Virus record (IMG/VR): IMGVR_UViG_3300044695_008744
DNA from: an uncultured virus (IMG/VR IMGVR_UViG_3300044695_008744)
Lineage: Duplodnaviria > Heunggongvirae > Uroviricota > Caudoviricetes
Length of the DNA: 20,000 nt
Direction: 5' to 3' (one strand)
How positions within the stretch are numbered: position 1 is the stretch's first letter; the number at the start of each line of letters is the position of its first letter. The notes below the pieces were generated by a model, which made no database searches, was not told the DNA's origin, and saw only the letters and a list, made by a program, of their open reading frames with translations. The position numbers and the translations under genes are program-made. This document shows positions 3 to 20,000 of the stretch, in pieces.

Positions 3-3000
3 CCAACATATTTGAGAAAATATGTGACAAATTCAAGTGTTGTAAATGGAATAATTTTTGATTTCTCAGAATATTCAACAACAATCGGTGGACCAGTTTA
101 TTTAAGTTTACTCACTGAAACTGAAGAAAAAAGATTTTACACAATCGCTAACAATTTCTCATTAAGCACAGACTATACATTCTCATTTAGTGTGCAGAGG
201 ACAAATTCTGATAATGCTTTTCATTTGAAACCATTTTTTACTCTAAGTGGGGGAAATCTAAATGAACTATCATTAAGTCTTGATGATATTCTCACAGAAC
301 CTTTAGATACACAATCTCTTACTTTTGGATTTTATCCATTTATATCTTTGATTGGTAATGGCAACGCCACTGTATCTTACTCCGTGTTTAGAGGCACTTA
401 TAATCATGGGCTAAGTTACCAAAAAGATAAAACATATTTTTCATTGTTATCAAGTGAAAACCCTGACTATACTTCTCAGTATGGAAAAAATGTTATTGCT
501 CAAAATACATACGGAATTACCACTTCAGCATTTCCGCAGATAGACACATACTTTTCTAATAACTCTATAAAGCAATTTAAATACGAAAATGTTACTTTTA
601 CAGTTAAAGCAGCATCAACTAGTCCAGTAGGTCTGTATGGACAAACTTATATAGACGGCATATATTTAGATTTTTGTGATTATGTTTTGGTTGCTGGTCA
701 AGTTGATAAAACAACAAATGGTGTATATCAAGTTCAAAGCCAAAGATGGGTTAAACAATCTGCATTGCCTTCAGGTAGTAATTTATCTGAGCCTACAGTG
801 TTAGTAAGCCAGGGAAATATTTTTGAAAATACACTTTGGATGCTAGATAAAACCTCATCTGAATGGATTAGCAATGTGATTAGTTGCCCAGTCGTAATTG
901 AGGACAATAATCTTCTTTTCACAGGAGTATCATCTTCTTATAAATATCCACAATATATTAAACTTGCATGTTCAGTAAATGGAATTGCCAGCCAAAGCAC
1001 CAGCAACCAAGTACAGATAAAATTGGCGAATTCTCCCACAGAAATTATTCAGGAAACTGATCAGATTACACAATGGGTTGGATTATTGCAAAATGGACAA
1101 CTTTACAATATTCAAGAAAAAAGCAATTCTAATAACACTGTATTTATGAATTTTGGAATTTCAAGTTCTCAAATTTCAGGAATTACAACAAATAGTTTTC
1201 CAGCAGTTTACAATATTTTAACAAGTTATGCTGGTAATTTTGCACCAGCAATATCAAATAATTCAGATTTTGTTCTTCCAGCTTACGGTTCTGAATATAG
1301 AATTTTCAAAAATGCTAGTTTAATTTATCAGCTATTTTCAACCTATGATTCGGTGAGTTTGAGTTCTTTGTCCACTGCAGTTGTAAACTCTTCAGTGTAT
1401 GCACTTAATTTTGCAAATCTTAAATCACCACAATCTGGTTATAGTACAGATATATTCATTGATAATGTTGCACCAACTATAGGAATTGTTTCTGTTTTAA
1501 ATGATCAAACAAAATCTGTAACTCTTGGTGTATCCACTGCATTAGACGCTGGGTCTGGTTTATATATAGCAAGAATTGTTCAAAGAAATCCATCCAATGA
1601 ATTAATATATGGATCTTGGTTTGGTTTTAATACAAACAGTTTTTATGGCTTATCAACCTTTACTGCATATCCTTCATATGTATCGAATGTAAATGGAATT
1701 TCCACTGGAGAACCTCTTTCAGGTTATTATAGATATAGCTTGCAAGTGGCAGACTCTGTAGGAAATGTAGCACAAACAAATCAAGTAGAAAGTTTTTATT
1801 ATGAATCTGCTCTTGTTGACACACAAGGTCCAGGATGTTCTGTTCAGTTTGTCAACTCACAAACATTTGAACCGATTTCAATTTCTTCATCTACAATCTT
1901 AACTGCTCAGATGTTTGCAACAGACACATTATCTCAGGTCAAAGCTTTTAGATATAGAATTCTACCTGATGGAGAATTCGGCAATTGGATTGACTATAAT
2001 GAATATGCTAACATTTATCTTCCTGAAAATATTTTAGACGGCACACTATCTGTCCAATTTCAGTTTAAAGATTTTGGCAATAATGTGTTGTATTCAAATT
2101 CTACAATCATAAATGATCAAGTTTATGTTTATTCATGGAACATTGTATCAAAACTTATAAACAATACTCTTTTCACTGTCACTGAAGTTACGAAATACAA
2201 TAATAACTCAGTTCTTTTGATTGGTGCATCTAAGCAAAATGCTGCTACACTTTTTGTGTGGGACAACAACAAACTGATTGAATTACAATATTCTGGCTTT
2301 ACAGGATGTAAAGCTGTTACCGCATTGATAAAAGTGGGAACACAAGTTTTAATTGGAACTGACAATGGTTCTATATTCACATACAGAAATGGTGTGGTGG
2401 CAGGTCCATTCGCTACTTTGAGTTGGGGCGATACACCTTTGCCAATTTCTAAATTTGAAATTCACTCTTACCCAGAAGACAACACAAGTTTTGTTTACGC
2501 AACAACATTAAATATTCCAAGAATTTTTAGAACTCCAACTGATAGCTTGAGATCTACTTCTTGGGAAGTAATTCAACCACCATTTATTTCTCTGGAGAAA
2601 ATTAATGTATTGAATTCGGGGCTTTGGTCAGGTACACAAATTTCATACACAATCTCATCAAGTTATATACCAGCCACATTATCACCAAACTATAGTTATG
2701 GTATTTCAAGTGTTATTGTTGCCAGCTCTGGTTCTAATTTACCAAGTGCGCCTACAATTACTGTTGGTGGACCCATTACAAACCTTGGATTACAGCCAGT
2801 AATGCAAGGAAGTATTGGTCAAATTATTTTAATTGCAAGTGGTCAAGGGTATTCGTCTGGAGCCACAGTAACAATTGCATCACCAGCAACAGGAGGATCA
2901 TCAGTACAAGCCACTGGTGTTGCAGTAACAAATTCACTTGGTCAGATTGTGTCGATAGTTTTGACTGCTGCAGGCTATGGATATACTGCACAGTACCCAG

Positions 3001-6000
3001 CTGTAACAATCACAGGAAATTCTGGAAATGGAAGCCAAGCTACCGCTACAGCAATAACACAATTTGATTCGATTTATTCTGTTACTGTCACTTCAACAGG
3101 TATTGCTACAACATCTAACATTACACTGACTACATCAGGTGGCGCGGTTTTAATTCCTACATTCTTGTATAGAGTGCCATCTATTACATTGACAAGCCCA
3201 GGCTTTGGTTATACATCAAGCCCAATTGTTTCAATTAATGGTTTAACAACCTTAGCAAGTTCAGTGGCACAATATGGTTCAATACAATCTATCACAGTGA
3301 GTGAGCCAGATGTAGAATTTCCAATCACTCTTTCTCCTAGTATATCTTTTATTGGTGGAGCATCCACTTCGTTTACCGCTAGTTTATCAACCACATCAAT
3401 TTCTTTTTCTACAGGTTCGACCGATAGTTTCTTAGGATTTGTATTAAGCTCAGCAAGTATCACAACAAGTTCTGTTGGTTTTGGGACTATTCCTCAGATT
3501 GTGTTTACAGGAACTGGAACTACAAATATTTTCTTACCACAGCTAGAATATGTTTTATCTGATGACATTCTTTTATATACAAAATCTGGTTCAATTTATG
3601 ATATTAAATCTTTTGATAATAAACTTTTTGTTTCAAGTTCATCAGGCGATATTGTAGAAATTGGTTATTCAAGCGGAATATTCAGCGCAGAGAGACATAA
3701 ACTTAATGTCAATAGCAATACTTTTTCTAATATTATTCCTGTTAATTTGGCAAAATATAATGATGGTATAAGCACTAATCTTTATTTTAGCACAAAAGAA
3801 GAGCCTTATATTGGAAAGTTAACAAAAAATCTAAACAGTTTTATTTTTGATTCTTATCGTGATAACATTTTACTTTTCAAACCTTTTAATTTTGATATTC
3901 TTTCAAACTGGCAACTTAAGAAAATTATCAATGATAATGGTTTTGCAAACGTTTCTTATGGAGATTCAAACAATAGTTCTGTTGACATCACAACATTTAA
4001 TGCTCAAGCTTTTTATGAAACTACAAAAGAGAACACATGGTTCAACAGATGTATTACTAATAATGACTATTTAGTGTTGTTTGATTTCCAGGCAGTTATT
4101 GGAACACAATCTTTTGAAATTTCAACTTTTAATTCTACACTTAAAGTAGCATTTACAGTTTTAAATAACACTCTACAGATTGCTTTTGGAAACAATAACT
4201 ATTCTACTATTGAAATTGATCTTTCATCTAATTACAATATTTATTTTGCAAAGAGTTCACAAAATTTATACATTTACAATGATTCTAACTTAATTTACAG
4301 TGAAATAGGATTTTTTGTAACCGTGAGTGCACAACCAGTTATTAAGTTTGGTTACATATTCGAACCACAAACTGTTTCAGCCAATGGTGACACTCTGTAC
4401 ATATTTGGTTTACCTTCTAATGCTGAATCTTCACAATTTATTTGGAGACAAATTAAATTCTCATTTAATAGCAGCACTAATGTATTACCAACTGATTATT
4501 ATAGTTTAAGTTTACCTTATGTAATGGCTAATTCTAGCTCTGTAAGAGCACTTAGAAATATAAACAATAGTTTGTTTGCCGCAACAAAATCAATTTTAGA
4601 TAGAAGAAGTACAACAAATCTTCCAGATGTTGGCACTAAAGTTTTTAGATTAGATAATGATTACTGGAGTGATGTTACAGGTAACTTTGATACATATACA
4701 GCAAGTGTAAGCACCTCTTATGTAATAACTTCACCAAACGACATTAACGCTTTAGACAATTCGTATTTTGTTACAGGTTTGGTTAAATCAATTCCAACAA
4801 GACAAGCAGCAAACACAATTATTCTTGGTCTTACATCGAACACAATTTATGAAGAACAAAATGGTCTTATATTAACAATTATTTACCCATATAATATTGA
4901 ACCTTCAGGCAAATTCTTGTTTATTTCAAGCACAAATAGTAATGTAACAGTTCCTTCTTCTGTCTTCTTTAGTTCAAGCGATCAAGTTCAAACTGTTGCT
5001 GTGGGAATTGGATCTACATCAGTAAACTCAAATGTCACCTTAACTGTAACTGATGGTGATATTTCCCAATCTGTTACAGCTAATATTTTGCCAATTGGAA
5101 TTTCTACTCTTGGATTCAATACAAATCTTTTTGTTGGATATTCTCAAGATTCTGTAATTGCAAATATAAGATTGACATCAGTTCCTAAAACAAACAGAAC
5201 AATTTTATTATCTAGCAATAATAGTTCAGTGCTGGCAGCACCAACAAATGGAATTGCTACAATTACAGCGGGTAATATTGGAATCTTTACTTCATTCTCA
5301 GTTGGCACAGCTGTAGCATCTAACACTAGCGTGACTATTGCTGCGTCTTACAGATCAACATTTGGGATAGCTACAGTTGTTGCATCTCCATTTGTTTTGT
5401 CATTAGGCGTAAATACAAATACTTTTGTTGGCAATGAATCCACAAGAAAAGTATTTGTAACATCCAGCGTTCAAAAATCCCCAATTGGCGTATTAACAGT
5501 GAATTACACCTCAAGTAGTAGTGCTATATTAAGTATACAGCCATCCGCTGTAATATCTCCAGCTTCTTTCAGCACAACTACTCAATTAACAATTGGAAAT
5601 GCTGTCACTACCAACACTCAAGTCAATTTGACAGGAAGATTTACTGGATCAATTTCCACTGGAATTTCTACTGCCACTCCGTTTGTTGTGACTACAGCGA
5701 CCACTGACTTATCAAGTCCAGTTTTAGGTTTACAAACTTCTAACGTTACATTTACAATTAATACTACACCTCTTACTAATGTGTCGGTTAGAAACATTGT
5801 GAGTTCACCTTCTTTTGTTAATATGGTGTTCCCTACATTCTCAACAGTCCTTGCTGGTACTTTATCTACCACTTTTGCAATATCTACTACAATTCAAACA
5901 TCAGCAGGATTAGCTATTACAATCAAAGGTGCGCCATTTGGATTCAACACTTCTCCAACTCAAGGTTTAATACTTTCTTCTGACGTTTGGAAGATTACAG

Positions 6001-9000
6001 GGTTTTCTATTTCCCCAACTTCAATTGTTGGAAATGGGCTTTTCGCAAATGGCATAGGTCAATCATATATTCTAAATGTTTCACTTAATATTGGTTTGCA
6101 AACAACAATTCTTATTACATCAAGTACAGGCTTTGTTAGCACAAGAAACATTAATTTCTTGACCACAAGCACAGGCTCAGCATCATCTATTGGATATGCC
6201 ACTGGATTTTCTACTTCTGCAATAACAAACGTAACTATAACAGCCACTGGTCCTAATTCTATATCTAGTTCAGTAAGTGGCTTGTTCTTAAATCCACTGT
6301 TAATTTCAAGTTTTTCGACAGCTTATGTATGGAATGACATTGCAACATTGTCTCCTAATTATACTATAGGAGGTCTAGGGGCAACAGTGATTGGCACTGT
6401 TGTGCTTAATTCTTATGTAGCCACAGGTGTTCAAACTATTCTTGTAAGAGCAAGCAATGTAACCACTCCTATAAGAATTTATGGTCAATCTTCTTCATCG
6501 GAAATTATAGGCTTAGCAACAGTATATACAGGTAGCAACACTACAAGTATTAATTTTGGGGCAAATTTTGTTTCTGTAAATACATCAGAGCCAATTACAG
6601 CTAGAATAATTTCTTCTGGTAGTGGTGTAGCAACAACGCCTATCAATGTTTACACCTATCCATCTTACAGTGCAATTTTCTATCCTGTTTACAGTGGTCG
6701 AGAAAACTATTTTGCACTTTCTGTTGGAACAAGTTTGCCAGTGAGCATTGGTTTTGCTGTAACTTTTAATAGTGGAGCTGGAATTGCTATAACAGCCACT
6801 CTTTTTGCGCAACAAAATCAAGTGTTGGCAAGCGTAAATCTTGGAACATTTAACACAGATAAGGTAATTTTAGCAGAAGTTGTGGCTTTAGGCTCAATGC
6901 AAACCTATTATGTGACAGGATATGCAAAAACAGGGGACGTTTTTGGTATGGGCTACAATTACTACGGGGAACTTTCATATAATTATCCTGTTTTAGGTCC
7001 AACAAATGGTTCGGCAGATAAGATTGCAATGAATCTTGGAAACATTGTTAAAACTGTATCAGGCTATCATCATAATTTAGCTCTTGATTCATATGGATAT
7101 GTTTATGGTATTGGTTATAATGCATATAATCAAATAGATTCTACTGGTATATCCACAAATGCTTTCAAACTCATCAACACAAATAACACATATGTCAGAG
7201 ACATTTTTGCTCAAGGTAACTCTTCTTACTTTATAACTGCCGATAACAAACTATATGGTTTTGGAGAAAATAATTCATATAGTTTGGGTACTTCAGGGTT
7301 TGCAAGCACAAGTGCTCCTTATCTTATAGCTTCTAATGTTGTTTTAGCTAGTATTATTTATGATAGAGGTGCTTACGTAACCTATGACAACAGGCAAGGA
7401 ATACAATCAGTGTATGAGTTTGGTAATGGAGCAGCTGGAATAACAAGTAAGCCCATCACTACATTGACAGATCAAGGCGTAACAATTCCCATTAGTAATT
7501 TGAGAATTTCAAATATTGATAATGGTCAGTATCATACAGTGGCGTGTGGCATATGGTCAAATCAAACTTTAGGTTTTTCTTCTAGTGGTGTTTTTGCTTG
7601 GGGAAGCAATGCATATTATCAAATAGGAACTTCTATTTCTATTGGCTATATAACAGTGCCTAATATTCTTCATAGATTTACCCAAGGAGGGGTTGATCAT
7701 GTTACACAATCTAATAACATTTACGCTGTTGATAGATTATCTGGTGTTGTTGAAAGTTATATACCTCAGGATCAATACTTTGTAGGCTCTGTAACAATGA
7801 ATACTCAAGGAATTGGATATACAGCAGGAGCAACTGTAACGTTTTCTGCTCCTCCTGTAACCCCATCTTCCGTTACAGCAACAGGTTACGCAGTCACTAA
7901 CGCGATTGGAATTGTTTCATCAGTCCTAATTACTAATCAAGGAGCAGGTTATAATCTTGGAGCAGCTGTTACGTTTTCTCCTCCACCAGCAGGAATAAAT
8001 ACTCGAAATGCTACTGGTACTGTTATTGTAAGCGCCAATAAAGTGGATTCAATTGTTATCACTGATTCTGGTAATGGTTATACTGAAGCCCCAACAGTAT
8101 TTATTTCACCAATAGCTGGTGGCTCAGGAGCGGCAGGAATTTCTTCAATGGCGTATAGCCAAATCACACAAATTATCGTCAGCAATTCTGGTTTTGGTTA
8201 TACAAACGCTCCAACAATAACAATTTCGTCTGTTGTGGGTTCAGGTGCAACAGCCACAGCAAATATCGAAACTATTGCTGAGCCAATTAACATTATTTAT
8301 CAAGTTGGAGTCAGCGTGACTTCGAACGCTACTGGATTTGGTTTAGCTCAAACATCTATCGCTGCTCCTTTATATGTAACAATACCTCAAGTATTACAGC
8401 GTATTTCTAAAAACTCTCAACATTTTGTTTGGACTATGCAATCTGGTTTAGTTTATGTCTCAGGCGGATCAGTGGGTCCGATACCTCTTACACAGTTAAC
8501 AACCACATTTACACAATCTGTTAGGCTGTTTGCACAAAATGAACCTCTCTCTACAAATGAACTTTATAGTTATGTGTGGTCAGCTGGCTCAAACATAACA
8601 ATTTCACTATTTGCTGGGGAAATTGTTCAAACTCTGAGTCAAGTTCCTGTAAAAATCAGTAGCCAAAACCAATGGGGTCCAACTAGTAACAATGAGTGGG
8701 GCTGGGCTTTAACACTCAAAACTGATGGTTCAATCGATTTCTTTAGACAACACCCAACGATTGTTCCTAAGTATGTTCAGAATTATCTACAAAATATTTA
8801 TGGAAATACTTTTGTTGATGTTTGTGCTACAAGCTATTTCAAGCCTACTAGACTTTATGGTGATTCAAACTATGCACCTGTAGCTCTTTCTTATTCAGGA
8901 GGCAACGTATTTGTTATAAGAACTCAAGGCGTAAGCAGTTACAATGTTTACCTTTCTAAGGCATCATCTGTTGCCCCTGTCCTAATTGATTCTGGCTATT

Positions 9001-9740: not shown

Positions 9741-9768
9741 TCTAGGCAAAACCAGTTTAGATCAAGAA
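9734..9768 (+). promoter_or_regulatory. Intergenic inverted repeat/RNA hairpin spanning the ORF1 stop codon, function unknown
   Basis: TTCTTAATCTAGGC-aaaacca-GTTTAGATCAAGAA forms a 14-position stem with 11 Watson-Crick pairs, 2 G-U pairs and 1 mismatch, and a 7-nt loop. No U-tract follows it. Confidence 0.5.
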
Positions 9769-9779
9769 AAATAGAATGA

Positions 9780-12700
9780 ATGTTCACCGCAGTTGCCTCA
9801 AATACAAGTTTAACAATTTATTTTCCAGCTACAATCACTGGTGTAAATACAAATCTGATTTATGTATTTGATAATAATGTTTTTAGATCAATTTCATCGT
9901 ATGGAATTGCTTCATCTCAAGTAAATTTTACTTTAAATAAATCTGTAACAGTGGGCGGAACTACCAAAATAAATCTTTATAGGGGTGGAATAAGTTCAGC
10001 AACAGGTTTGTTTACCACATCAGTGATATTTGCCACAAATTCAACAATATATGTTGATAATAATGAGCCATCATTAATTGAAATGATTGAACAAGGCAAT
10101 TATAATTTTACCAGTTATGTTTATTCTAATTTTATCACTGGTATTTCTACAGAAGCTAATTTTCCATCTGCTAACCTCACTTTGAAAAGACAACCACCGT
10201 CTGGTAAAATAACAATTAATGAGGGATATTTAGGGAGCATGAAAGTGCACAGATTTGCCGCATTATCTTCAACAATATTTACAGTGAATGAAGCCAGTTT
10301 TTTTTATGCACCTAAAAACTTTGCGTTTGATTATAATGTTTTTGGAAATCAAACTTTATATTCAATAACTTTAAGTTTTGCTCCAGCTAATGCTTTTGCA
10401 ACAAATTCGAAAGGATATTTCACATTAAATGAAGATTATTTTGATTCACCTTCGCAAGTTGCGCTAGGAATTACAACAATTGTTGATTTAACAGGAATAA
10501 CACAATCTGCTGTTAGATTTACTTTCACTGATCCAGTAGTGCTTTCTGAAGGAAAATATTGGTTTGTTTTCAAGCCCACTCCAAGTGCGAGTTTTGGCTC
10601 TGGAAATCAAATGCAATTAAAACAATCTGTAGCTGACAATTTATATACTACCACTTTCTTAGATTCAGATGATGGTGTTGTTTTTACTTCCACAGAATAC
10701 AACGGTGTTGGTTTTACTGTTATTACAGAACGAGGAATTGTTTTGCCATCTGAAGACGCAATTTATAATCAGTTGAATCAACCTCAAGCAGAAGAAGTGA
10801 TTTATGGAGATGAGTCAAATTTAAATGTTTATGTATCTTTAGCAGTTCCGACATCTGCACACTCAATAAAGAAAAATTTATTAGATGATTCACAGGTGTA
10901 TGCAATCGAAACTCTCATTGACTCTTTAGGTCAAAATCAATACGAAGTGGTTGGAGTAAATTCATCATATTATTCAATGATTGCAAATGCTTTGACACCA
11001 AACATTGTAAGATATGATTTTTACTCTCCTCAAAATATTTATCAAATTAACTTGAATAGCTTGGGGGATTATTACGCTAAAGGAAATCAAGGAACAGTGT
11101 TAGTGTCAGCTTCTGACTTTATTGGTTTGTCAACAATTGAAATTTCCACTTCTCCAAATTTTCCATCTAGTGGTACCACTTCAATCACACTATCTGGCAA
11201 TCCGCAGTTATATTTAGAAAATTTAGATTTTGATTTTGGTGATTTAGGCAAACAATTTGTAGCAGTGCAATACGAAACAGGTAATCCTATTCGAGCAATT
11301 TTTGCAGTGGCAATCAATGGGGTATTTAATTATCTTTTAATTTCTGATTCTGATCTTTATACATATGATCAAACTACTATAACAAATGTCTACACCCTTT
11401 CTAATTCAATCTTTACCACATATTGTGTTGGAACAGAGGGCATTTTATTGGCAGACACAAATGGTGTAATTTATAATTTCAATAATAATGCCATCACAAC
11501 CATTGGTAATGTTGCTAATATTCCTACAGCTTCATCTACGCAAACTACAAACTCATATATTGGTGTTTCTACTTTGTTAGACACATCTTCAGCGCAAAGT
11601 AGAAAAAGAATCTATAAACTTAATAACAATACATTATCTCACTTGTCGTGGTCTACACAAATTCCAGAACCTGAAATTACATTTATTTATTCCACATCAT
11701 TTGGATTAATTATTGGTGCTTTTGAACAAAACAGATCTGTTGGTAAAATATACATTTACTACAATTCTATCCTCACGCTCCAGTATCAAACTTATCTCAG
11801 ACCTGATGTTGCTTTCTTTTCAACTACAACAAATAAACTTTATGTAGCGTTTGCTGGTTCTCAAATTTTATATGCTTCTTACAGCTCAAATAAACTTGGT
11901 AATTTTGAAGATTCAGGTGTTCCAGTTTCAGGAACAGTTGCAAAACAACTTACTGCAACTAAAGACTCTGGATATATTTCAGTGATAACAGATTTTTCAG
12001 CTTATATTTTCAATGAAACTAATTACACAGCTTCTCAGATTACTTCACCAGGTTACTCATCTGATGACCAGAGGGGATTGTTAGTTAGCGTAGAAAATCA
12101 AAATCTTAACCTTTCTTATTATAAATCAAGCTACAAAACACAATCTTTTAGCAATGTACAATTTGATCCTCTTTTAAATGGATATACATCAGCATTTGTT
12201 TACAACGCAAATGGATATATAGTTTTTGATACAATCTCAACTAGTTACACCACTGATTTCTTTTTGCAGTATCCTAATAATTCTTCCATTCAATACATAA
12301 AATTTGATGGGCAAAATTTAAGTTTAGACAATAACACATTTACTCAAACCTTTGAGCCATCTATTCCAAGACAATTCTCATTTGAAATAGTTGGATTAGC
12401 TGTAACAGGCATTGGAACAATTGCGCTCTACAATGGGCTTAATTCTTCCTCTCCTGTGGTGGGGCTATCAAGCTTTGTTGCACCAAAAACAATAAACTGG
12501 TATTACAGAACAGGCGCAGAATATGATGTTTATGGTTTTGCAGATGGTTCTTTAAGAGAAGCAAATACTACAGATTTGTCTTCAAACCAATTTAAAGTAT
12601 ATGCTCGATTTTCTGATGTTTTTGGTAACAGAAGTGGTGCTTCCCAGCTTGCCACTGATATTATTTATAATCAAATTCAACAACAAGCAAACAATCAAGC

Positions 12701-13799
12701 ATTGCCTTCAGGCAAAATATTAGAAATCAATCCTGCAACTACCATGAATGGTGTTACACAATTTGTCCCACAATCGGGGACAAATAATTTCATTTATTCA
12801 GGTTCAAGAATTGTTAGATCCACTGGAGTATTTGAATCAGATCCTTATTATGCATCTGACGTAGTTGCGTGGGGTCAATTGCAATTATTAGCAATTATTC
12901 CAGGAGTAGCAAGCAGTGGTGAGCATGGCACTTCTGTCACTCTATATGTTAAAACAGGCACAACACTATCTAATCTTCAATCAAACTTGTATACCAACTC
13001 ATACACGGTAAGCACAATTAATAATGGCAACGATTATAGCGCCTCTGTTACATCAATATTAGCAAACATTTCAAGTTTGTCAGGTAGATGGATACAATTT
13101 AAAATAGAACTTGTTTCTGCATCTGCCAATGTTACACCAGAAGTGAGAAGTGCACTTCTTACCTATACTGGTGCTGGAAAATCTGTATTTGTAACTAAAA
13201 CATATAACACAGCCACACAATCTACTATAAATCCAACACCTAAAATAAGGCGCGGTATTTTAACAGCTAACTTTGTAACTAATGGAGGCGAATTGGTATT
13301 TGGGTATACAACAGATCCAAATGATGGCAATCCTGCAAATTACACAGTTATCACACCCAACCAAATTTTCACATTGCCTTCACCATCTTCGACAATTAAA
13401 TTCGGTGTCATCCTAAAAACTGCCACTGATAACCCAGCTTTCTTAGATGAATTTGCTGTTCAGCTTGACCTTGGTCCTAATGATGTTTATTTTATGCCAC
13501 CGCAGGCTTCATTTGAAATTGCACAATATCTGGATCCTGTAACAGGTATTGCAGTGACGAAAACATATCAATTTGTTAATAAAACTATTGGAATTGTATC
13601 AAGTTACAACTGGAGTTTTGGAACATCTTCATTTACAATCATCAATGGAACAATTTCCACAATATATAATGCACAAAATCCAATAATTGGTTTTGCTAAT
13701 TCAGGACCATTCACTGTAGGTTTATTTGTTACAGGTTGGGTAGAAAATAATATCGTCTTCAATTCAGAACTTTACACTAAATCATTCATAGCAACATAA
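9780..13799 (+). CDS. 1339-aa putative phage virion structural protein: split Ig-like domain, jelly-roll domain, 7-blade propeller, PA14-like insert, two beta-sandwich domains and C-terminal PKD domain
   Basis: ATG 9780 directly follows an in-frame TGA, so the ORF cannot extend upstream. It ends at TAA 13797-13799. No signal peptide or TM segment is apparent. Motifs include FTFTDPVVLSEGKYWFVF, GRWIQFKIELVS...TPEVRSALLTY and YNWSFG. Confidence 0.8.
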   Translation: MFTAVASNTSLTIYFPATITGVNTNLIYVFDNNVFRSISSYGIASSQVNFTLNKSVTVGGTTKINLYRGGISSATGLFTTSVIFATNSTIYVDNNEPSLIEMIEQGNYNFTSYVYSNFITGISTEANFPSANLTLKRQPPSGKITINEGYLGSMKVHRFAALSSTIFTVNEASFFYAPKNFAFDYNVFGNQTLYSITLSFAPANAFATNSKGYFTLNEDYFDSPSQVALGITTIVDLTGITQSAVRFTFTDPVVLSEGKYWFVFKPTPSASFGSGNQMQLKQSVADNLYTTTFLDSDDGVVFTSTEYNGVGFTVITERGIVLPSEDAIYNQLNQPQAEEVIYGDESNLNVYVSLAVPTSAHSIKKNLLDDSQVYAIETLIDSLGQNQYEVVGVNSSYYSMIANALTPNIVRYDFYSPQNIYQINLNSLGDYYAKGNQGTVLVSASDFIGLSTIEISTSPNFPSSGTTSITLSGNPQLYLENLDFDFGDLGKQFVAVQYETGNPIRAIFAVAINGVFNYLLISDSDLYTYDQTTITNVYTLSNSIFTTYCVGTEGILLADTNGVIYNFNNNAITTIGNVANIPTASSTQTTNSYIGVSTLLDTSSAQSRKRIYKLNNNTLSHLSWSTQIPEPEITFIYSTSFGLIIGAFEQNRSVGKIYIYYNSILTLQYQTYLRPDVAFFSTTTNKLYVAFAGSQILYASYSSNKLGNFEDSGVPVSGTVAKQLTATKDSGYISVITDFSAYIFNETNYTASQITSPGYSSDDQRGLLVSVENQNLNLSYYKSSYKTQSFSNVQFDPLLNGYTSAFVYNANGYIVFDTISTSYTTDFFLQYPNNSSIQYIKFDGQNLSLDNNTFTQTFEPSIPRQFSFEIVGLAVTGIGTIALYNGLNSSSPVVGLSSFVAPKTINWYYRTGAEYDVYGFADGSLREANTTDLSSNQFKVYARFSDVFGNRSGASQLATDIIYNQIQQQANNQALPSGKILEINPATTMNGVTQFVPQSGTNNFIYSGSRIVRSTGVFESDPYYASDVVAWGQLQLLAIIPGVASSGEHGTSVTLYVKTGTTLSNLQSNLYTNSYTVSTINNGNDYSASVTSILANISSLSGRWIQFKIELVSASANVTPEVRSALLTYTGAGKSVFVTKTYNTATQSTINPTPKIRRGILTANFVTNGGELVFGYTTDPNDGNPANYTVITPNQIFTLPSPSSTIKFGVILKTATDNPAFLDEFAVQLDLGPNDVYFMPPQASFEIAQYLDPVTGIAVTKTYQFVNKTIGIVSSYNWSFGTSSFTIINGTISTIYNAQNPIIGFANSGPFTVGLFVTGWVENNIVFNSELYTKSFIAT
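13497..13796 (+). other. PKD domain at the ORF2 C-terminus
   Basis: PPQASF...YQFVNKTIGIVSSYNWSFG...AQNPIIGFANSGPFTVGLFVT matches the PKD pattern (PxAxF, VxFxxxS, YxWxFG, xNPxxxYxxxGxYTVxLxV). Confidence 0.85.
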
Positions 13800-16700
13800 T
13801 GTCAAAACGAACACCGATCTATAACTATTTATACCTTGAGAGTGGTGATGTCATATATCCAGGTTATGACAAAGACAATCAATTTACATCTGAAAATCAA
13901 ATTTTTGGAATGTACAGTTATTTAGGTCAGGGAATTATTTCTGGTTGGACAATTCATTGGATGGGCTGTTTATCTGATGCTTATGTTTTGCAACAAAGAC
14001 AAGCTCTTATAGATGCATATCGCACTGATCGTTTTTCATATTTGGCTTTACAATATCAATCTCTTAATTATCCAGTAACAGAAGCTGATTGGAAACAATG
14101 CATAGTGGTGAAGCCTGGATTAGGCATCGTTGATGTATTTCATGCTGCCACTGAATATCCCACCTTTTTCAGATTCACAGAAGTAAATCATTACTACGTT
14201 TGGGCTCAAAAAAATGTTTGCACAAACACTGAATATCTTTGTGAAATTGTAGCCCCTGAATATCCAGATGAAGATTATGATTTAGCTAATCAAGCTATCT
14301 ATATAGGAGAGGTTTTTACAGGAGTAGTGAATTCTAGTGTAGCCGTAACACAAATTACATATTCTGAAAGAAGAAGAGAATTAAAAAATGCTCAAGGGGA
14401 TATACAAAGAATTTTAAATCAAGCTTTGATCAACCATGTGCATTCTGGGGAAGGTGATAACCCAAGCAAAATTAATTTGAGTACAAATGTAACAATTATA
14501 GTTCCTATAATAGAAAACAGCAATACTTTCACTTTTACTTTGCCTTCTGGGTTTAACTCAAATAATTATGCAACTCCACAAGTGTATTTGAATAGTAATC
14601 TGTTAATGTCTAGCCAGTATCAAATTTCTGGTTCAATAATTTATTTGCAAAATAGTGTGCCAATTACTTCATCTCTTCAGATTGTGTATCAGCTTGCTCC
14701 AGGTCCAAATATTTACATAACAAGTTCTTTAACCCCTCCATTACAAAATATCACTTTAAGTTTCGAAAAAATATATTATCTTACAGATGGTACAACAACT
14801 ACTGCCAGTGATGGTACTCAAGTTTTTAATGTTTGGAACTGGAATGATAATAATTATAGCGAAATCAAAGTATATCTTTCTACTGAGGCGTTAGATGTTC
14901 AAACTTATAGCATCTATCAATTAAAAGGAGTGGATAATAGTGGCGGAAGACTTAAATTTATTGGACCCATATTACCTTCAATTTTGAATTATGGAGAAAC
15001 TGATGTTGTAGTTAAATTTACTGTACCAAGCTTTGAAGTTACTGGGAAGCTTTCTGCGTCAAGAATTGCTTCAATAAATGCAAGTAGCTTTACAAGAGGC
15101 ACACTTTCTAATGCTAGAATATCACGATTAGATCACTTAGGTCTATATAGATTAGACGAAAGAGCAACAGTAATACCAACAAAAAAATTATTAGATTCTG
15201 GTGATCACATTCATTTTTATCCTGAAATAGAAAGTGTAATTCAACATTCTGATTACATTTTAAATACAACAACTACAAGGTATGTAAAAGAAACCTCAGC
15301 AGATTCTACCACTTCTCCAAAAACAATTATATCTACCCCCAATGGATTATTTGCATCAAAAAGATCTACGCTTGATTTTTCAACAATTGTAAAACTTCCT
15401 TGGAATACAGACAATGGTGTAGCAGATGAATTTTCAGAAAACTACTTTGGTAATTTTAATACATATCAATTACCAGGCACAACTACTGAAAATTTAAATC
15501 CAAAAGCTTTTTGGATTTTGTGCAAGAACAAAAATCAGTTTAAAAATGTTTTATATCTCTCCACTAATTTTGGAATAACATATTCTAAAATAACCATACC
15601 TTTTACTAGTTCAGGATCAATAGTAACAATAAATGATTTTATCTTTACAGTAAATGTATTTCAGTTCACTGTAGGTGAAGTAATTCTCACACCAAAGCTT
15701 GATGTAAATTATATTTATTATATTGCGGCAACAGATGGTTTGTATTCAGCAACAATTTTAAGAAGCCAAAATAAATTGAAACCAGTTTGGGATAATCCAA
15801 CAAAAAACACAACAAATGCTTCTACAGGTTCTATAAATAAAATTTCAGAGGCTGTAAATGTTGGCACTATCACTACGACATATGATTCAGGTCTTACTGA
15901 AAGGAATTATCAAAATTACAGAGCTTTATATGCCGCTTGTGATTCTGGATTGTTTGTGTATCAATCTGGAACAGGACTTAAATTTACAACAAACTCAACA
16001 GCATATAATTCTGACAATTCAACATTTTATTTTTCTAAATGGCTTGGTGTAGAAGATTCATCTAATCAGATTTTTGCAGTGGCGTGGGCTGACAGTTATG
16101 GCTTATACTTCTCAAATTCTGGACAAAAAATTACAACTACATCTTCTAGCGGTAGCTCAAGAACTGTTACAATTACTTTTTATGAGCCTCTTACTTTAAG
16201 CAGAACTTCTACAACCACTGTAAGTTGTGCTTCTACCGAAAACATTGATATTACAGAGGCTATCACTTCTATTGATGGATATAGTCTAGTAAATTCTGCT
16301 TTAGTTTTGCTTAAAAATCAAACAGATCCGAGCCAGAATGGAGTGTATATATGGTCATCAACTTCAGAGCTTCTTTATAAACAATCTAGTTTTAATACAA
16401 AAGTTTATGTTACCAATGGCACACAATCTCAAACAGAATGGATACAACTTGAATCTGATCCAGAAAATTTAAATGCAATTAATTATGCTTTATGGTTTGC
16501 AAATATTCTTTCTTTAGAAAGTAATGATCAGATTGTGTCAATTGCAAATGATAAATCTGGCGGACCAAATAGTAATACAACAGAAACAAGATATTATCAA
16601 TCCTTTTTTGTTGCAACAACTAAATATATCTATAGGGTATTGAATTACAATACTCCGAACATTTATCCAACTATTTCACAAATCAACTGGGATTACGAAA

Positions 16701-19700
16701 ATAATGGGCTTATTACCAATATTCAACATTACAGTGTCGAAGATCCAGAAAACGGTCAACTTGTAGTGTTTACTGAAAATGGAATTTTTAAATCAAAATC
16801 AAGTGCTTTTGAATATGGACCATTGGACTCATCAGGCAATTTGGTTTTACCAAATAATTCTTACGAAAGATTTATTAACAATGTAACAGCACCCCAAGCA
16901 GATAATGCATCAGTGTACGATGCTTATACCTTGGAAGAGTATGTAGGTAAAATCACATCAGTAAGTATTGCCACTTCAATTGTCACCGTTCCTGATGGCA
17001 CTTACACGAATCAGCGCGTTTATGCCAATAATACACAAGGCTCTGGGTTGACTGTAGATCTTACAATTAAATCAAATGTTATTACAAGTCTAGAGATCAA
17101 TAGGGGTGGAGTAAATTATGGTGAAGATCTGCCTAATCCATATGTGGTAATTGGTGAACAGAAGATTTTCTTACAAAATGCAGTGACACAAGGATACTTT
17201 ACATGTAATTATGATTCTCAATATTTTGTTTACAGCAAATCTGATGGAATAAATCCTTCTTCTTTATTATATGAAGTTAACTACACAAATTTTTATGTGG
17301 AGCCTTGGAATAATTTTCCATTAGTTACAGCTAAAATTAACAATACACCTACAAATAATACTTTCGGATATAATGCAGAAACTGGTGAGATTGTGTTTGT
17401 GGATTCGTTGCCTAAATCTTTGAAAGATTCTGTCACCGTTTCTTTGACAAATAAAGGACAATACATTTCCAATACTGGTGATACTCCTCACGGTGAAGTA
17501 TTTAACATAAGCATTGCTGACTCAGTGCCTTCTGCAAGTATATCATCCACTTACTATTCTTCGTCTGGTTCTAATATTCTGCCTTTAAAAAACATCAACA
17601 ATACTAGATGGAACTCGGAAATCACATCCCTAAAAGTTACAGGATTGAGACCTGCAACTAATAGTTCAACTTTGCAATCTTACACTGAGATTTTACAAGT
17701 TAGTGTAGACACCACTGCTGGGCTCATTGTTTACATAAAGTCTAAACCGACAACACTGCCTCTCACTGTAAACTCAAATGTTTTTATTGTTAGACCTTAT
17801 GATAATGTTCTTGGAATTGAAGATAAAATTTTTCTTTCAAAATCAAACCTCACATATCACATGGATTCTGTTAGTCATGCAAATGTTTACACATTGTCTA
17901 ATGCTCTCACAAATATTAATCCAGATTTGTATGATTATCCAATTGTGCCAAATGAAACTTTATCAGGTGTAGATAGAGGGTTAAAAAATACTATTGCTCT
18001 GAAAAGTTTGTCAGAATTTGATCCAACAGCTACATTTGTTGGATATACATTTGGTGTTGACCCTAGCTCTTCAGATGTAGCAGCTTCTCCATCTACAATA
18101 AATTTAATCCTTAATTTTTCTTATGGAAATAACCCAACGTTTGCCACTAACAAAGGAATTTGGCAATACTTTAGAGCCTCTAAATCTTGGGTTAAACTTG
18201 ACTCTGTTGGAGATTCTAATGTAATTAATTTTGCTGATAAAACTCTTACAAATTCCTCGAATATAAGCTTTACATATGCAGGAACTGATCAAGGGCTTTT
18301 TTACCAACAAGACGGTGTATATACACTTGATCCTTTATTTACTGAACCAAATTTGAGTGTAAGCATGGGATCATGGTATACTTCAGCAAAGAACACAACT
18401 AAAAGATTTGAAGCTTATGGAAAAGACAATAGCATGTCTTTTGTTTTGAGAACCACAAAAACCCAAGAGCAAACAACTACCTTACAAAGTGATTATTTTG
18501 AAGGTCATACTATTTATGATCTTTATTACAATACTTTTTACAGATATGATGATAAGGGAAATAGAACTGAACATCCTGCAATTTATTTAGCAACGGATTA
18601 CAGTGTTTGGGCTTTTACCACTGACGCCGCTCCAGGGTCACCTCCACCTTCAAGCAGAGGTGCAAATCACACTTTACTTGTAGGTCGCGAAATGTTCGGC
18701 AATAATATTCTTAGAAACATAAATAGATTGAATCCAAGTGCGCTTGGTATACCTGTTAAAGTTTACAAAATTTTAGAAGTTCCTTCAGGTGGGAGATCAA
18801 CTTGGCTTGCTGTGGCAACATCAAATGGTGTGTATGTTGTTATAAACTGGAGACAATGTGATGTTGGTGATCCAAACGGTTTAACTTTTTATCCGCAAAA
18901 CAAATTCAGTTCAAATGAAACAGTTGGACACTCGTGTTTTGTTATAATTCCAAAATCTACTGATACTTCTAATTCCACATATTTTGTTGGCACTGAAGTG
19001 GGTGTTTTTAAATCTGTATCAAAATGCGGAGATTGGTCAAGAGTTTCAAAGTTTGATAATCAGGATTTGTCAGTAAGCGATTTAAAATATTTCAACGATT
19101 CAAGCGGAAACGGTATACTTGTTGCTGCCACGAACTTAGGGCTTTGGGTTTCCAATGATGATGGTGACACATGGTCAACAGTAGAAGATTATAATGATCC
19201 ACAAGTGCAAATAGAAACAAGTGCGACATATGGCTCTCCTTTAAGCGATTTGCCAATTCAAACATTTACGCCTGTTTCTGACGGCTATGTATCAAAGGCT
19301 TTTGCATACTTTAATCCAGGAGATTTAACTGGTATAACAACATTAAAAGCTTACATTTCTAACGGAACAGCTACAACACAATCTTCATCATCAATAGAAT
19401 TGAATTCAAGCAGTTATCCAGGCATGTATGGATTTGCATTTTCAAATGTGTCATGTATATCAACCATGTCTTATAGTCTAGGAATAGTAACAGATAATGC
19501 CACTTACGCTTCACAAGTAACATGGGGATTATCTAATTTGAATAATCCATACACACAAGGATCAGCATCTACATCTGGTGGCACATTATTAAATAAAGAC
19601 TTTTTCTTTAGAATAAATTTAACTACCCCTGCTACACCCACTGAAGTAATAGAACCAGTGGGATTCTATAACACATCTTATTCAATAGGTTTTGCGTCAG

Positions 19701-20000
19701 GAACATATTTGGGGGCTTCAATTTCAAGTACAGGATATCTTTATTCAAATGTTGGTATTTTGTGCAATGTTGTATTTGACACTTCTAAATCTTTTGAAAT
19801 CAATGATACAGCTATTGTCACACAATCTGGAGTATCCACTTCTTATGTAAGAACTGCAGTAATTAATGCCTTAGTGCCAACTGGAATAAACTCTGACACT
19901 TTATATACACGCTTGTCGAATGGTTTTGGCACTAGCAAATTGCTTACAGCAATATATGGATTTAACAATAAAATCAATGATTTATTGTTTTATTCAACAG
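13799..20000 (+). CDS. Giant (>=2067 aa, 3'-partial) putative phage fibre/baseplate-associated protein with HxH motifs, BNR/Asp-box propellers and a probable vWA domain at the window edge
   Basis: ATG 13799 overlaps the ORF2 stop (TAATG). Manual translation gives MSKRTPIYNYLYLESGDVIYPGYD... with no stop through ...INDLLFYST at 19999. Motifs: HVHSG 14435, GTLSNARI about 15100, STNFGITY 15560, SNDDGDTW 19151, DTSKS 19778. Confidence 0.85.
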   Translation, partial: MSKRTPIYNYLYLESGDVIYPGYDKDNQFTSENQIFGMYSYLGQGIISGWTIHWMGCLSDAYVLQQRQALIDAYRTDRFSYLALQYQSLNYPVTEADWKQCIVVKPGLGIVDVFHAATEYPTFFRFTEVNHYYVWAQKNVCTNTEYLCEIVAPEYPDEDYDLANQAIYIGEVFTGVVNSSVAVTQITYSERRRELKNAQGDIQRILNQALINHVHSGEGDNPSKINLSTNVTIIVPIIENSNTFTFTLPSGFNSNNYATPQVYLNSNLLMSSQYQISGSIIYLQNSVPITSSLQIVYQLAPGPNIYITSSLTPPLQNITLSFEKIYYLTDGTTTTASDGTQVFNVWNWNDNNYSEIKVYLSTEALDVQTYSIYQLKGVDNSGGRLKFIGPILPSILNYGETDVVVKFTVPSFEVTGKLSASRIASINASSFTRGTLSNARISRLDHLGLYRLDERATVIPTKKLLDSGDHIHFYPEIESVIQHSDYILNTTTTRYVKETSADSTTSPKTIISTPNGLFASKRSTLDFSTIVKLPWNTDNGVADEFSENYFGNFNTYQLPGTTTENLNPKAFWILCKNKNQFKNVLYLSTNFGITYSKITIPFTSSGSIVTINDFIFTVNVFQFTVGEVILTPKLDVNYIYYIAATDGLYSATILRSQNKLKPVWDNPTKNTTNASTGSINKISEAVNVGTITTTYDSGLTERNYQNYRALYAACDSGLFVYQSGTGLKFTTNSTAYNSDNSTFYFSKWLGVEDSSNQIFAVAWADSYGLYFSNSGQKITTTSSSGSSRTVTITFYEPLTLSRTSTTTVSCASTENIDITEAITSIDGYSLVNSALVLLKNQTDPSQNGVYIWSSTSELLYKQSSFNTKVYVTNGTQSQTEWIQLESDPENLNAINYALWFANILSLESNDQIVSIANDKSGGPNSNTTETRYYQSFFVATTKYIYRVLNYNTPNIYPTISQINWDYENNGLITNIQHYSVEDPENGQLVVFTENGIFKSKSSAFEYGPLDSSGNLVLPNNSYERFINNVTAPQADNASVYDAYTLEEYVGKITSVSIATSIVTVPDGTYTNQRVYANNTQGSGLTVDLTIKSNVITSLEINRGGVNYGEDLPNPYVVIGEQKIFLQNAVTQGYFTCNYDSQYFVYSKSDGINPSSLLYEVNYTNFYVEPWNNFPLVTAKINNTPTNNTFGYNAETGEIVFVDSLPKSLKDSVTVSLTNKGQYISNTGDTPHGEVFNISIADSVPSASISSTYYSSSGSNILPLKNINNTRWNSEITSLKVTGLRPATNSSTLQSYTEILQVSVDTTAGLIVYIKSKPTTLPLTVNSNVFIVRPYDNVLGIEDKIFLSKSNLTYHMDSVSHANVYTLSNALTNINPDLYDYPIVPNETLSGVDRGLKNTIALKSLSEFDPTATFVGYTFGVDPSSSDVAASPSTINLILNFSYGNNPTFATNKGIWQYFRASKSWVKLDSVGDSNVINFADKTLTNSSNISFTYAGTDQGLFYQQDGVYTLDPLFTEPNLSVSMGSWYTSAKNTTKRFEAYGKDNSMSFVLRTTKTQEQTTTLQSDYFEGHTIYDLYYNTFYRYDDKGNRTEHPAIYLATDYSVWAFTTDAAPGSPPPSSRGANHTLLVGREMFGNNILRNINRLNPSALGIPVKVYKILEVPSGGRSTWLAVATSNGVYVVINWRQCDVGDPNGLTFYPQNKFSSNETVGHSCFVIIPKSTDTSNSTYFVGTEVGVFKSVSKCGDWSRVSKFDNQDLSVSDLKYFNDSSGNGILVAATNLGLWVSNDDGDTWSTVEDYNDPQVQIETSATYGSPLSDLPIQTFTPVSDGYVSKAFAYFNPGDLTGITTLKAYISNGTATTQSSSSIELNSSSYPGMYGFAFSNVSCISTMSYSLGIVTDNATYASQVTWGLSNLNNPYTQGSASTSGGTLLNKDFFFRINLTTPATPTEVIEPVGFYNTSYSIGFASGTYLGASISSTGYLYSNVGILCNVVFDTSKSFEINDTAIVTQSGVSTSYVRTAVINALVPTGINSDTLYTRLSNGFGTSKLLTAIYGFNNKINDLLFYST
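16220..16441 (+). other. Second copy of the 'IDG...NGVY' fibre domain, in ORF3
   Basis: VSCASTENIDITEAITSIDGYSLVNSALVLLKNQTDPSQNGVYIW...KVYVTNGTQSQTEW. Confidence 0.8.
18095..19180 (+). other. BNR/Asp-box type beta-propeller in ORF3; an earlier propeller region lies at about 15320-16800
   Basis: Blades FATNKGIWQY, YAGTDQGLFY, IYLATDYSVW, LAVATSNGVYV, YFVGTEVGVFKS and LVAATNLGLWV, followed by the canonical Asp-box SNDDGDTW (19151-19174). Confidence 0.75.
19757..20000 (+). other. Probable start of a von Willebrand factor A domain with a MIDAS DxSxS motif
   Basis: ILCNVVF-DTSKS-FEIND (DTSKS at 19778-19792), then a helix-like YVRTAVINAL and a strand LLTAIYGFNN, matching the vWA betaA-alpha1-betaB order. 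Confidence 0.6.

Follow-up and report, generated by a model that had tools for sequence, protein, structure and literature searches.

The window analyzed here is a 20,000-nucleotide stretch of an uncultured Caudoviricetes virus (IMG/VR record IMGVR_UViG_3300044695_008744), comprising bases 51501-71500, the end, of the 71.5-kb record. It is occupied by three consecutive open reading frames (ORFs) for giant proteins, as described in an earlier note made from the sequence alone. We are confident that domains in these three neighboring proteins are nested in the loops of other domains, and we count 12 such insertions. The earlier note had claimed at least eight; all eight find support in structure models, natural absence, or a profile test (conjecturally so for the self-nesting of one repeat), and four more are added here. 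ORF1 residues are numbered from window base 3.

3..9740, + strand: ORF1, open at the 5' end; the last 3245 of the 4138 amino acids (aa) of the full protein; region 700-1625 has 30 homologues
9780..13799, + strand: ORF2, 1339 aa; 36 homologues
13799..20000, + strand: ORF3, open at the 3' end; the first 2067 of 3069 aa (full in the identical record L001); N-terminus paralogous to an upstream 1681-aa gene

The source is a jumbo phage, and ORF1-3 sit in a tailed-phage morphogenesis region, with head genes to one side and tail-tube genes to the other. ORF2 recurs at 100% identity in G001, a record of 347 kb with a completeness rating of 99%. There, the terminase, portal, and major head genes occupy 126-147 kb and a series of 1100-4100-aa genes 182-226 kb, with a tail-tube gene near 235 kb; a head-tail adaptor gene is also among the genes flanking the giant-gene run. 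The relatives compared were 36 ORF2 homologues, 30 homologues of the ORF1 region, and 19 metagenome loci, with L003 (441 kb), L053 (479 kb), and P0067-P0069 forming a distant group, clade B. Among GenBank phages, ORF2 had no match and ORF3 matched solely via its 94-aa module (three Mycobacterium phage records); GTDB genomes gave no match, PDB sequence searches gave nothing significant and no sequence link to solved chains, and the best ESM Atlas scores (0.86-0.87) fell on unnamed clusters that serve as leads only. In the three window proteins Pfam detected only RCC1-type families, plus one weak unrelated match, in keeping with the earlier note's view that hidden Markov model (HMM) annotation would fragment or miss the architecture. 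Below, LamG-like, galactose-binding-like, and immunoglobulin (Ig)-like are by-eye names unless a search result is given.

Propellers and inserts of ORF1

The features of ORF1 are as follows, GxGY standing for Gly-x-Gly-Tyr.

2166..4790, + strand: propeller 1, one predicted 7-blade ring in three segments (aa ~722-845, 1198-1277, and 1498-1596)
2589..3572, + strand: insert 1 (aa 863-1190), eight GxGY-type half-units; absent in 4/4 clade-B proteins
3858..4493, + strand: insert 2 (aa 1286-1497), an all-beta domain, LamG/ConA-like by eye only
7758..8282, + strand: insert 3 (aa ~2586-2760), four GxGY half-units in an RCC1 blade turn; absent in 8/25 orthologues
within 2589..3572, + strand: insert 4, putative self-nesting of the insert 1 repeats; long unbroken strands in the model
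6915..8492, + strand: RCC1-type propeller (aa ~2305-2830), PF25390 at an expect value (E) of 6e-21 and PF13540 at E 1e-6
4815..6902, + strand: Ig-like tandem array (aa ~1605-2300), ordinary end-to-end by sequence, with no nesting visible
1452..2117, + strand: two contiguous Ig-like domains (aa 484-600 and 604-705), the unsplit reference for the ORF2 hub
591..872, + strand: decoration-type module (aa ~197-290), 27.9 bits to the profile of the ORF3 module and of the same kind as the ORF3 insert

In the AlphaFold model of ORF1 700-1625 (28 sequences; predicted local distance difference test [pLDDT] 81.5, predicted template modeling score [pTM] 0.64), contiguous propellers of ~300 residues align 270-280 residues at 3.3-3.7 Å across model positions 10-896 of 926. 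Because the three propeller-1 segments hold only ~124, 80, and 99 residues, all three are needed for the ring, which is predicted to be split by inserts of ~330 and ~210 aa. The four clade-B sequences lack insert 1, carry in blade 1 a ~95-aa insert missing from the window, and hold a further ~265-aa domain inside insert 2, so that clade B also has two-level nesting (propeller, all-beta insert, further domain). When the inserted blocks were cut from both clades, the profile-profile score rose from 88 to 138. With the clade-A cut placed at each of 18 alternative starts, scores ranged over 62-131 and exceeded 117 no farther than 20 residues from the proposed start. The 18 alternative starts for the clade-B cut yielded 35-136, exceeding 113 no farther than 25 residues away; aligned length is non-discriminating in this test, as many control cuts also reach ~480 columns.

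In the model of insert 1, the strands at four junctions run without a break for 17, 24, 25, and 17 residues and surround a central hairpin, and their lengths, taken from the model's secondary structure, match in pairs (24/25 and 17/17). Insert 1 is thus likely to be an out-and-back stalk, about three deep and with a side branch, in which the repeats would be nested within themselves. Its length is nearly constant in all 28 clade-A sequences (344-354 aa for aa 850-1200), and no length variants occur among them. Insert 2 gave no relevant Pfam, NCBIfam, or PDB sequence match, and its fold lists were filled by propellers.

Insert 3, of ~175 aa, comes and goes among relatives. Of 25 database orthologues that hold the RCC1 region (the window's own included), 17 have it and 8 do not; in 7 of those 8 the flank matches are separated by 4-14 residues, and the remaining one has a truncated upstream match. 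On a tree built from propeller 1 and its inserts, with 24 labeled leaves (P0063 fell outside the alignment, and four proteins without an RCC1 region were unlabeled), the state of insert 3 changes at least three times, and one present/absent sister pair has support of 1.0. Recombination of the 3' part of the ORF1 gene could produce the same pattern.

Residues ~1605-2300 of ORF1, ~700 aa, read by eye as about six or seven Ig-like units arranged in tandem; both growth modes, end-to-end addition and insertion, therefore operate. The inserted share is ~22% in the ORF1 part, 55% in ORF2, and 19% in the ORF3 part, and the description of the nesting as systematic in the earlier note was too strong.

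Gene and domain variants of ORF1 occur among relatives. P0061, P0062, P0064, and P0065 are forms without the RCC1 region, and at L021:2-6355 and 6419-9958 the gene is split into 2118+ and 1180 aa by gene fission or fusion. The first Ig domain of the L053 orthologue (L053:9992-17449, aa 1234-1476) is apparently split by a decoration-type module that is missing from the window, Ig matches at 1234-1308 and 1444-1476 flanking a module match at 1307-1397.

Nested scaffolds of ORF2 and ORF3

In ORF2 a putative Ig hub in three pieces encloses the four inserts.

10179..12683, + strand: three-piece Ig hub (aa ~134-150, 436-487, and 934-968), enclosing inserts 5-8
10230..11084, + strand: insert 5 (aa 151-171 and 319-435), outer beta-sandwich, galactose-binding-like by eye only; contiguous in L053; no Pfam match
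10293..10733, + strand: insert 6 (aa 172-318), beta-sandwich within insert 5; absent in L053
11244..12575, + strand: insert 7 (aa 489-932), 7-blade propeller within the Ig hub
12048..12491, + strand: insert 8 (aa 757-904), PA14-type domain within the propeller (insert 7)

The AlphaFold model of ORF2 130-975 (36 sequences) reaches a pLDDT of 90.6 and a pTM of 0.76. A 293-aa propeller aligns 273 residues at 2.7 Å over 444 residues of this model, and a match of 273 residues spread over 444 leaves an insert of ~150 aa over. The L053 orthologue of that insert lies above the Pfam cut-off for PA14/GLEYA (PF07691, PF10528), with PF07691 at E 8.6e-16 and 58.5 bits against a cut-off of 24, and the L003 orthologue falls below it (E 2.5e-4, 21.3 bits); the window's own copy, which gives no PA14 match, has drifted below detection. 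Of the binding modules proposed in the earlier note, only this insert has a match to a binder family, and that in the L053 and L003 orthologues, not in the window's own copy. In the other branch, insert 6 is missing in L053, where its flanks abut (264-290 / 296-415); the outer sandwich (F5/8- or galactose-binding-like by eye) gave no Pfam, NCBIfam, or PDB sequence match.

The hub was examined with a profile of 59 contiguous Ig domains, all drawn from proteins of the ORF1 family. The joined L053 hub matches profile positions 2-102 of 105 at 19.9 bits, compared with 11.1 for the best single piece, 7.6 for the wrong order, 5.9 for the intact sequence, and at most 8.6 for 300 random joins; the joined L003 hub scores 10.7 bits end to end, against 9.6 for its best piece and no more than 4.5 for 200 random joins. 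The match is clear in the L053 orthologue and weak in the window's own family, which makes the hub likely by orthology. A hub of ~105 aa likely carries ~730 aa of two-level inserts, running from hub to propeller to PA14 and from hub to sandwich to aa 172-318, with the hub level weak in the window's own family.

ORF3 has inserts in its N-terminal domain, its shaft-like region, and its first propeller, and a fourth farther on.

13961..14098, + strand: insert 9 (aa 55-100), ~45-aa segment in the N-terminal domain; absent in 2/2 aligned paralogues
14489..15034, + strand: insert 10 (aa ~231-412), two small beta domains splitting a shaft-like motif after the H-x-H motif
15251..16888, + strand: propeller 1 of ORF3 (aa 485-805 and 900-1030), two-chain model
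16214..16495, + strand: insert 11 (aa 806-899), 94-aa decoration-type module matching phrog_24595 and phrog_2647 at E ~1e-8
16943..17182, + strand: insert 12 (aa 1049-1128), a single GxGY-type module with approximate boundaries
18086..19198, + strand: second propeller-like region (aa ~1430-1800), from sequence, with BNR/Sortilin matches in the L053 orthologue
in 13799..20000, + strand: H-x-H motif in the N-terminal region (aa 214-216)

Residues 485-805 and 900-1030 of ORF3, folded as two chains, scored 0.77, the best of three controls reaching 0.01. The mark applied is reached by 116 of 157 solved complexes and by 2 of 215 mismatched pairs, counts that are only approximate for the alignment used. 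The runs share at least 92% of contacts, the pLDDT of the partner is at least 72, and the partner contacts both ends of chain 1, as ring closure demands. The 94 aa left out of this fold belong to a mobile module already known from the two PHROG families and the Mycobacterium phage records. For insert 10, the shaft-like motif is unbroken by eye in both paralogues that lack aa 231-412, although MAFFT did not cleanly open the gap. Insert 12 has no match in L003 or L053, though the next domain matches at 56-67 bits. In L003, a decoration-type module sits inside the equivalent of insert 9.

Other variation around ORF3 was seen. Downstream of ORF2 in L014, L015, and L017, ORF3 comes in two parts of about 2050 and 1060 aa. 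In the L003 orthologue, a stretch of ~160 aa (L003:20368-20835) has an F5/8-type match below the cut-off (E 0.0024). A reversal of host and guest, in which the inner module of ORF2 would be the ORF3 module that hosts this F5/8-like domain in L003, was suggested by eye and rejected, as its scores were at background. A subtilisin-family protease gene (L037:6276-7199, E 2e-51) lies directly 3' of ORF3 and could process the giant proteins.

Across the three proteins, structure models support the inserts at ORF1 863-1190 and 1286-1497, ORF2 757-904, and, by the two-chain run, ORF3 806-899. In the models of the ORF1, ORF2, and ORF3 propellers the host segments on either side of an insert form one domain, and a structural match over the whole ring was obtained for a 7-blade propeller; Foldseek on whole models returned generic propeller matches (query template modeling score at most 0.26) that were uninformative on nesting. 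Natural absence in relatives or paralogues is seen for 6 of the 12 inserts (ORF1 863-1190 and 2586-2760; ORF2 172-318; ORF3 55-100, 231-412, and 1049-1128), and the profile test supports the two inserts in the ORF2 Ig hub, clearly for the L053 orthologue and weakly for the window's family. What the earlier note had anticipated has been found in several respects: propellers of ORF1 and ORF2 split by inserts in predicted structures, flanking halves predicted to pack together once an insert is removed (ORF3), insert-free homologues, and fixed scaffolds, propellers and Ig hub, that carry inserted modules.

The inserts share a kit of modules. The GxGY repeat is the commonest, at three sites, and occurs in ORF1, ORF3, and weakly in one further gene; the decoration-type module recurs in three genes of G001 and in four within 160 kb of G003 (590 ORFs scanned in all). 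Only weak direct repeats were found in the DNA, and none marks insert ends. Another GxGY-type module is held by an 858-aa gene elsewhere in the contig (L023:6161-8737, - strand).

A proposed attachment apparatus and its rivals

We favor, with some reserve, the reading that the three giant proteins are parts of a virion tail-tip attachment apparatus, with scaffolds that fold around inserted domains and inserts that vary among relatives. From the gene context we can reasonably infer an adsorption apparatus, and we likewise infer virion location, outward projection, binding, the spacer role of some modules, and the gain and loss of inserts by recombination. In the proposed mechanism, the scaffolds (propellers and Ig-like hub) and the chain termini would hold the assembly contacts and stay fixed, so that change is pushed into surface loops, which would tolerate a module only if its two ends lie close together. 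A small toolkit (GxGY repeat, decoration-type module, PA14, and other beta-sandwiches) would be reused across genes, and inserts could in turn become hosts for further inserts. The product would be branched, multivalent arms, in which some modules may attach to sugars on the host surface while others serve as spacers. Gain and loss of inserts via recombination would likely let the virus change the decoration of its exterior, probably that of the host-attachment gear, and leave the frame intact.

Several observations weigh against this reading. No sheath (PF04984) or baseplate-J (PF04865) match was found in any of four records, in which divergent genes could escape detection. Among PHROGs, the modules match head or connector families best. 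The Pfam search for ligand-binding families in the window's own inserts was negative, with nothing relevant in four insert segments; by eye, the PA14 inserts lack the Asp-Asp calcium motif of lectin-type PA14. As to the nesting itself, the models were read from secondary structure and fold-alignment spans, and the two-chain pass for the ORF3 propeller may reflect likeness to solved propellers. The 34 window-family hubs average 4.4 bits by HMM, mostly from the last piece, and hhalign of the joined ORF2 hub against contiguous Ig domains did not exceed random joins. A single-HMM excision test against L003 alone moved only from 30.3 to 32.9 bits. The excision in silico advocated by the earlier note paid off in the profile-profile comparison and for the L053 hub, but brought little or no gain with the single HMM and with hhalign.

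The inserts may be real and yet mainly structural, serving as stalks, struts, or cross-links in a large baseplate or collar and contributing hardly or not at all to receptor binding. We consider this unlikely while giving it more weight than any other rival: the GxGY module, present at three sites and without a known ligand, forms long strands in the model and has its PHROG match in a head-closure family, and the near-constant length of insert 1 in clade A points the same way. The PA14/GLEYA match in the orthologous ORF2 insert does not suit such a role, however, and the dispensability of insert 3 in 8 of 25 orthologues suits an accessory part better than a strut. It is less probable again, to the point of being improbable, that the products of ORF1-3 decorate the capsid or neck as head fibers. 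The absence of baseplate-J and sheath matches would fit, as would the labels of the PHROGs that the modules match ("head decoration," "virion structural protein," and "head closure"), yet those matches span mobile modules of 50-85 aa and not whole proteins, and in G001 the distance to the head genes is 50-80 kb but that to a tail-tube gene 8-9 kb. The ORF3 N-terminus with its H-x-H motif, which we take to resemble a tail-fiber anchor, also counts against head fibers.

That the inserts are tolerated passengers, drifting in and out of permissive loops with no adaptive role, seems very improbable. Repeated gain or loss of insert 3 on the tree and the finding of the same modules in several genes would be expected of passengers, but the inserts are in frame, are conserved across orthologues at 40-60% identity, and contain no nuclease or intein domain detectable by Pfam. 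Hardly credible is the idea of ordinary end-to-end multidomain proteins whose nesting is an illusion created by low-complexity Ser/Thr-rich sequence. Such composition does yield spurious alignments of ~26%, and part of ORF1 is a true tandem array; models, natural absence, and boundary-specific score peaks contradict it for at least 9 of the 12 inserts.

The attachment reading can be carried further, to a proposal that we regard as possible and rather doubtful: that phages of one family, 350-480 kb in size, vary the entire attachment apparatus by exchanging insertable modules from a common kit among fixed loops of several scaffolds, in both directions between clades, with tiny hubs carrying seven times their own size in nested cargo. 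If true, receptor-binding variation would have a third route besides C-terminal swapping and repeat expansion, one that HMM annotation would mostly miss. Profile searches see fragments of such giant phage genes, which explains why these remain "hypothetical." Since relatives supply pairs with and without an insert at the same loop, it becomes possible to test both the rules for tolerated sites and the part that inserts play in host range, and the insertion loops are candidate display sites for protein design.

Known nested proteins and further observations

Propeller loops are established insertion sites: integrin alpha carries an I-domain in its propeller, and DDB1 has a propeller between propeller halves. 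Integrin and DDB1 chains occur among the fold matches of our models; both are eukaryotic proteins with single inserts, and no homology is implied.

Nesting as such is not special to this lineage, for solved phage precedents exist. In the crAssvirus muzzle gp44, two Ig domains are inserted in a 7-blade propeller, and the architecture is the same as that of gp44 and the phage T7 nozzle in being a phage tail 7-blade propeller with whole domains inserted between and into blades (PMC10172136). The muzzle is a single gate protein of about sixfold arrangement, whereas here three adjacent genes hold 12 mixed inserts, some at two levels and with turnover among relatives. Contractile tail sheath proteins have "Russian doll" domains I-IV (PMC6088184) and share with the present proteins insertion within insertion in a phage structural protein, the outer sheath layers varying between systems. 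The sheath is one linear, polymer-forming nest; here, by contrast, nests branch, hosts are propellers or Ig domains, and none of the four records matches PF04984. Si3 of the cyanobacterial RNA polymerase beta' subunit shows six-level recursive nesting (PMC13114784), and this recursion of a small two-half module is a likely analogue of the GxGY stalk; it is deeper than the approximately three levels suggested here, with one module type and in an enzyme. The same paper states that ~20% of multidomain proteins carry an insertion, mostly single-level, and that inserts are usually smaller than hosts (median 115 versus 199 residues), which sets off one operon with 12 inserts and a ~105-aa hub likely carrying ~730 aa. 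What sets the present case apart is how densely a single operon is packed with inserts, together with the mix of module types and their continuing turnover. Literature searches, whose coverage largely excluded subscription papers and supplements, found no account of this operon and no paper that ties the phage to a host.

Several neighboring or unrelated loci were also recorded. At L010:1-10000, ORF2 and ORF3 are present with other genes, and not ORF1, directly upstream. A 429-aa ORF that by eye resembles an IS605/TnpB-type nuclease lies just upstream of the ORF1 orthologue (L003:39-1325, - strand), and a 317-aa ORF with a HINT domain (PF07591, E 2e-15) lies amid fiber-like genes (L039:3873-4823). 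The region G000:C1:19500-21500 is gene-poor, and its frame translations look like a tRNA cluster. Two phage genes in G001 (L033:7450-8430, - strand, and L041:7603-8631, + strand) bear a prepilin N-methylation motif and belong to clusters of 89 and 144 members; we take the motif to resemble that of Armatimonadota pilin-like proteins, a possible clue to the host.

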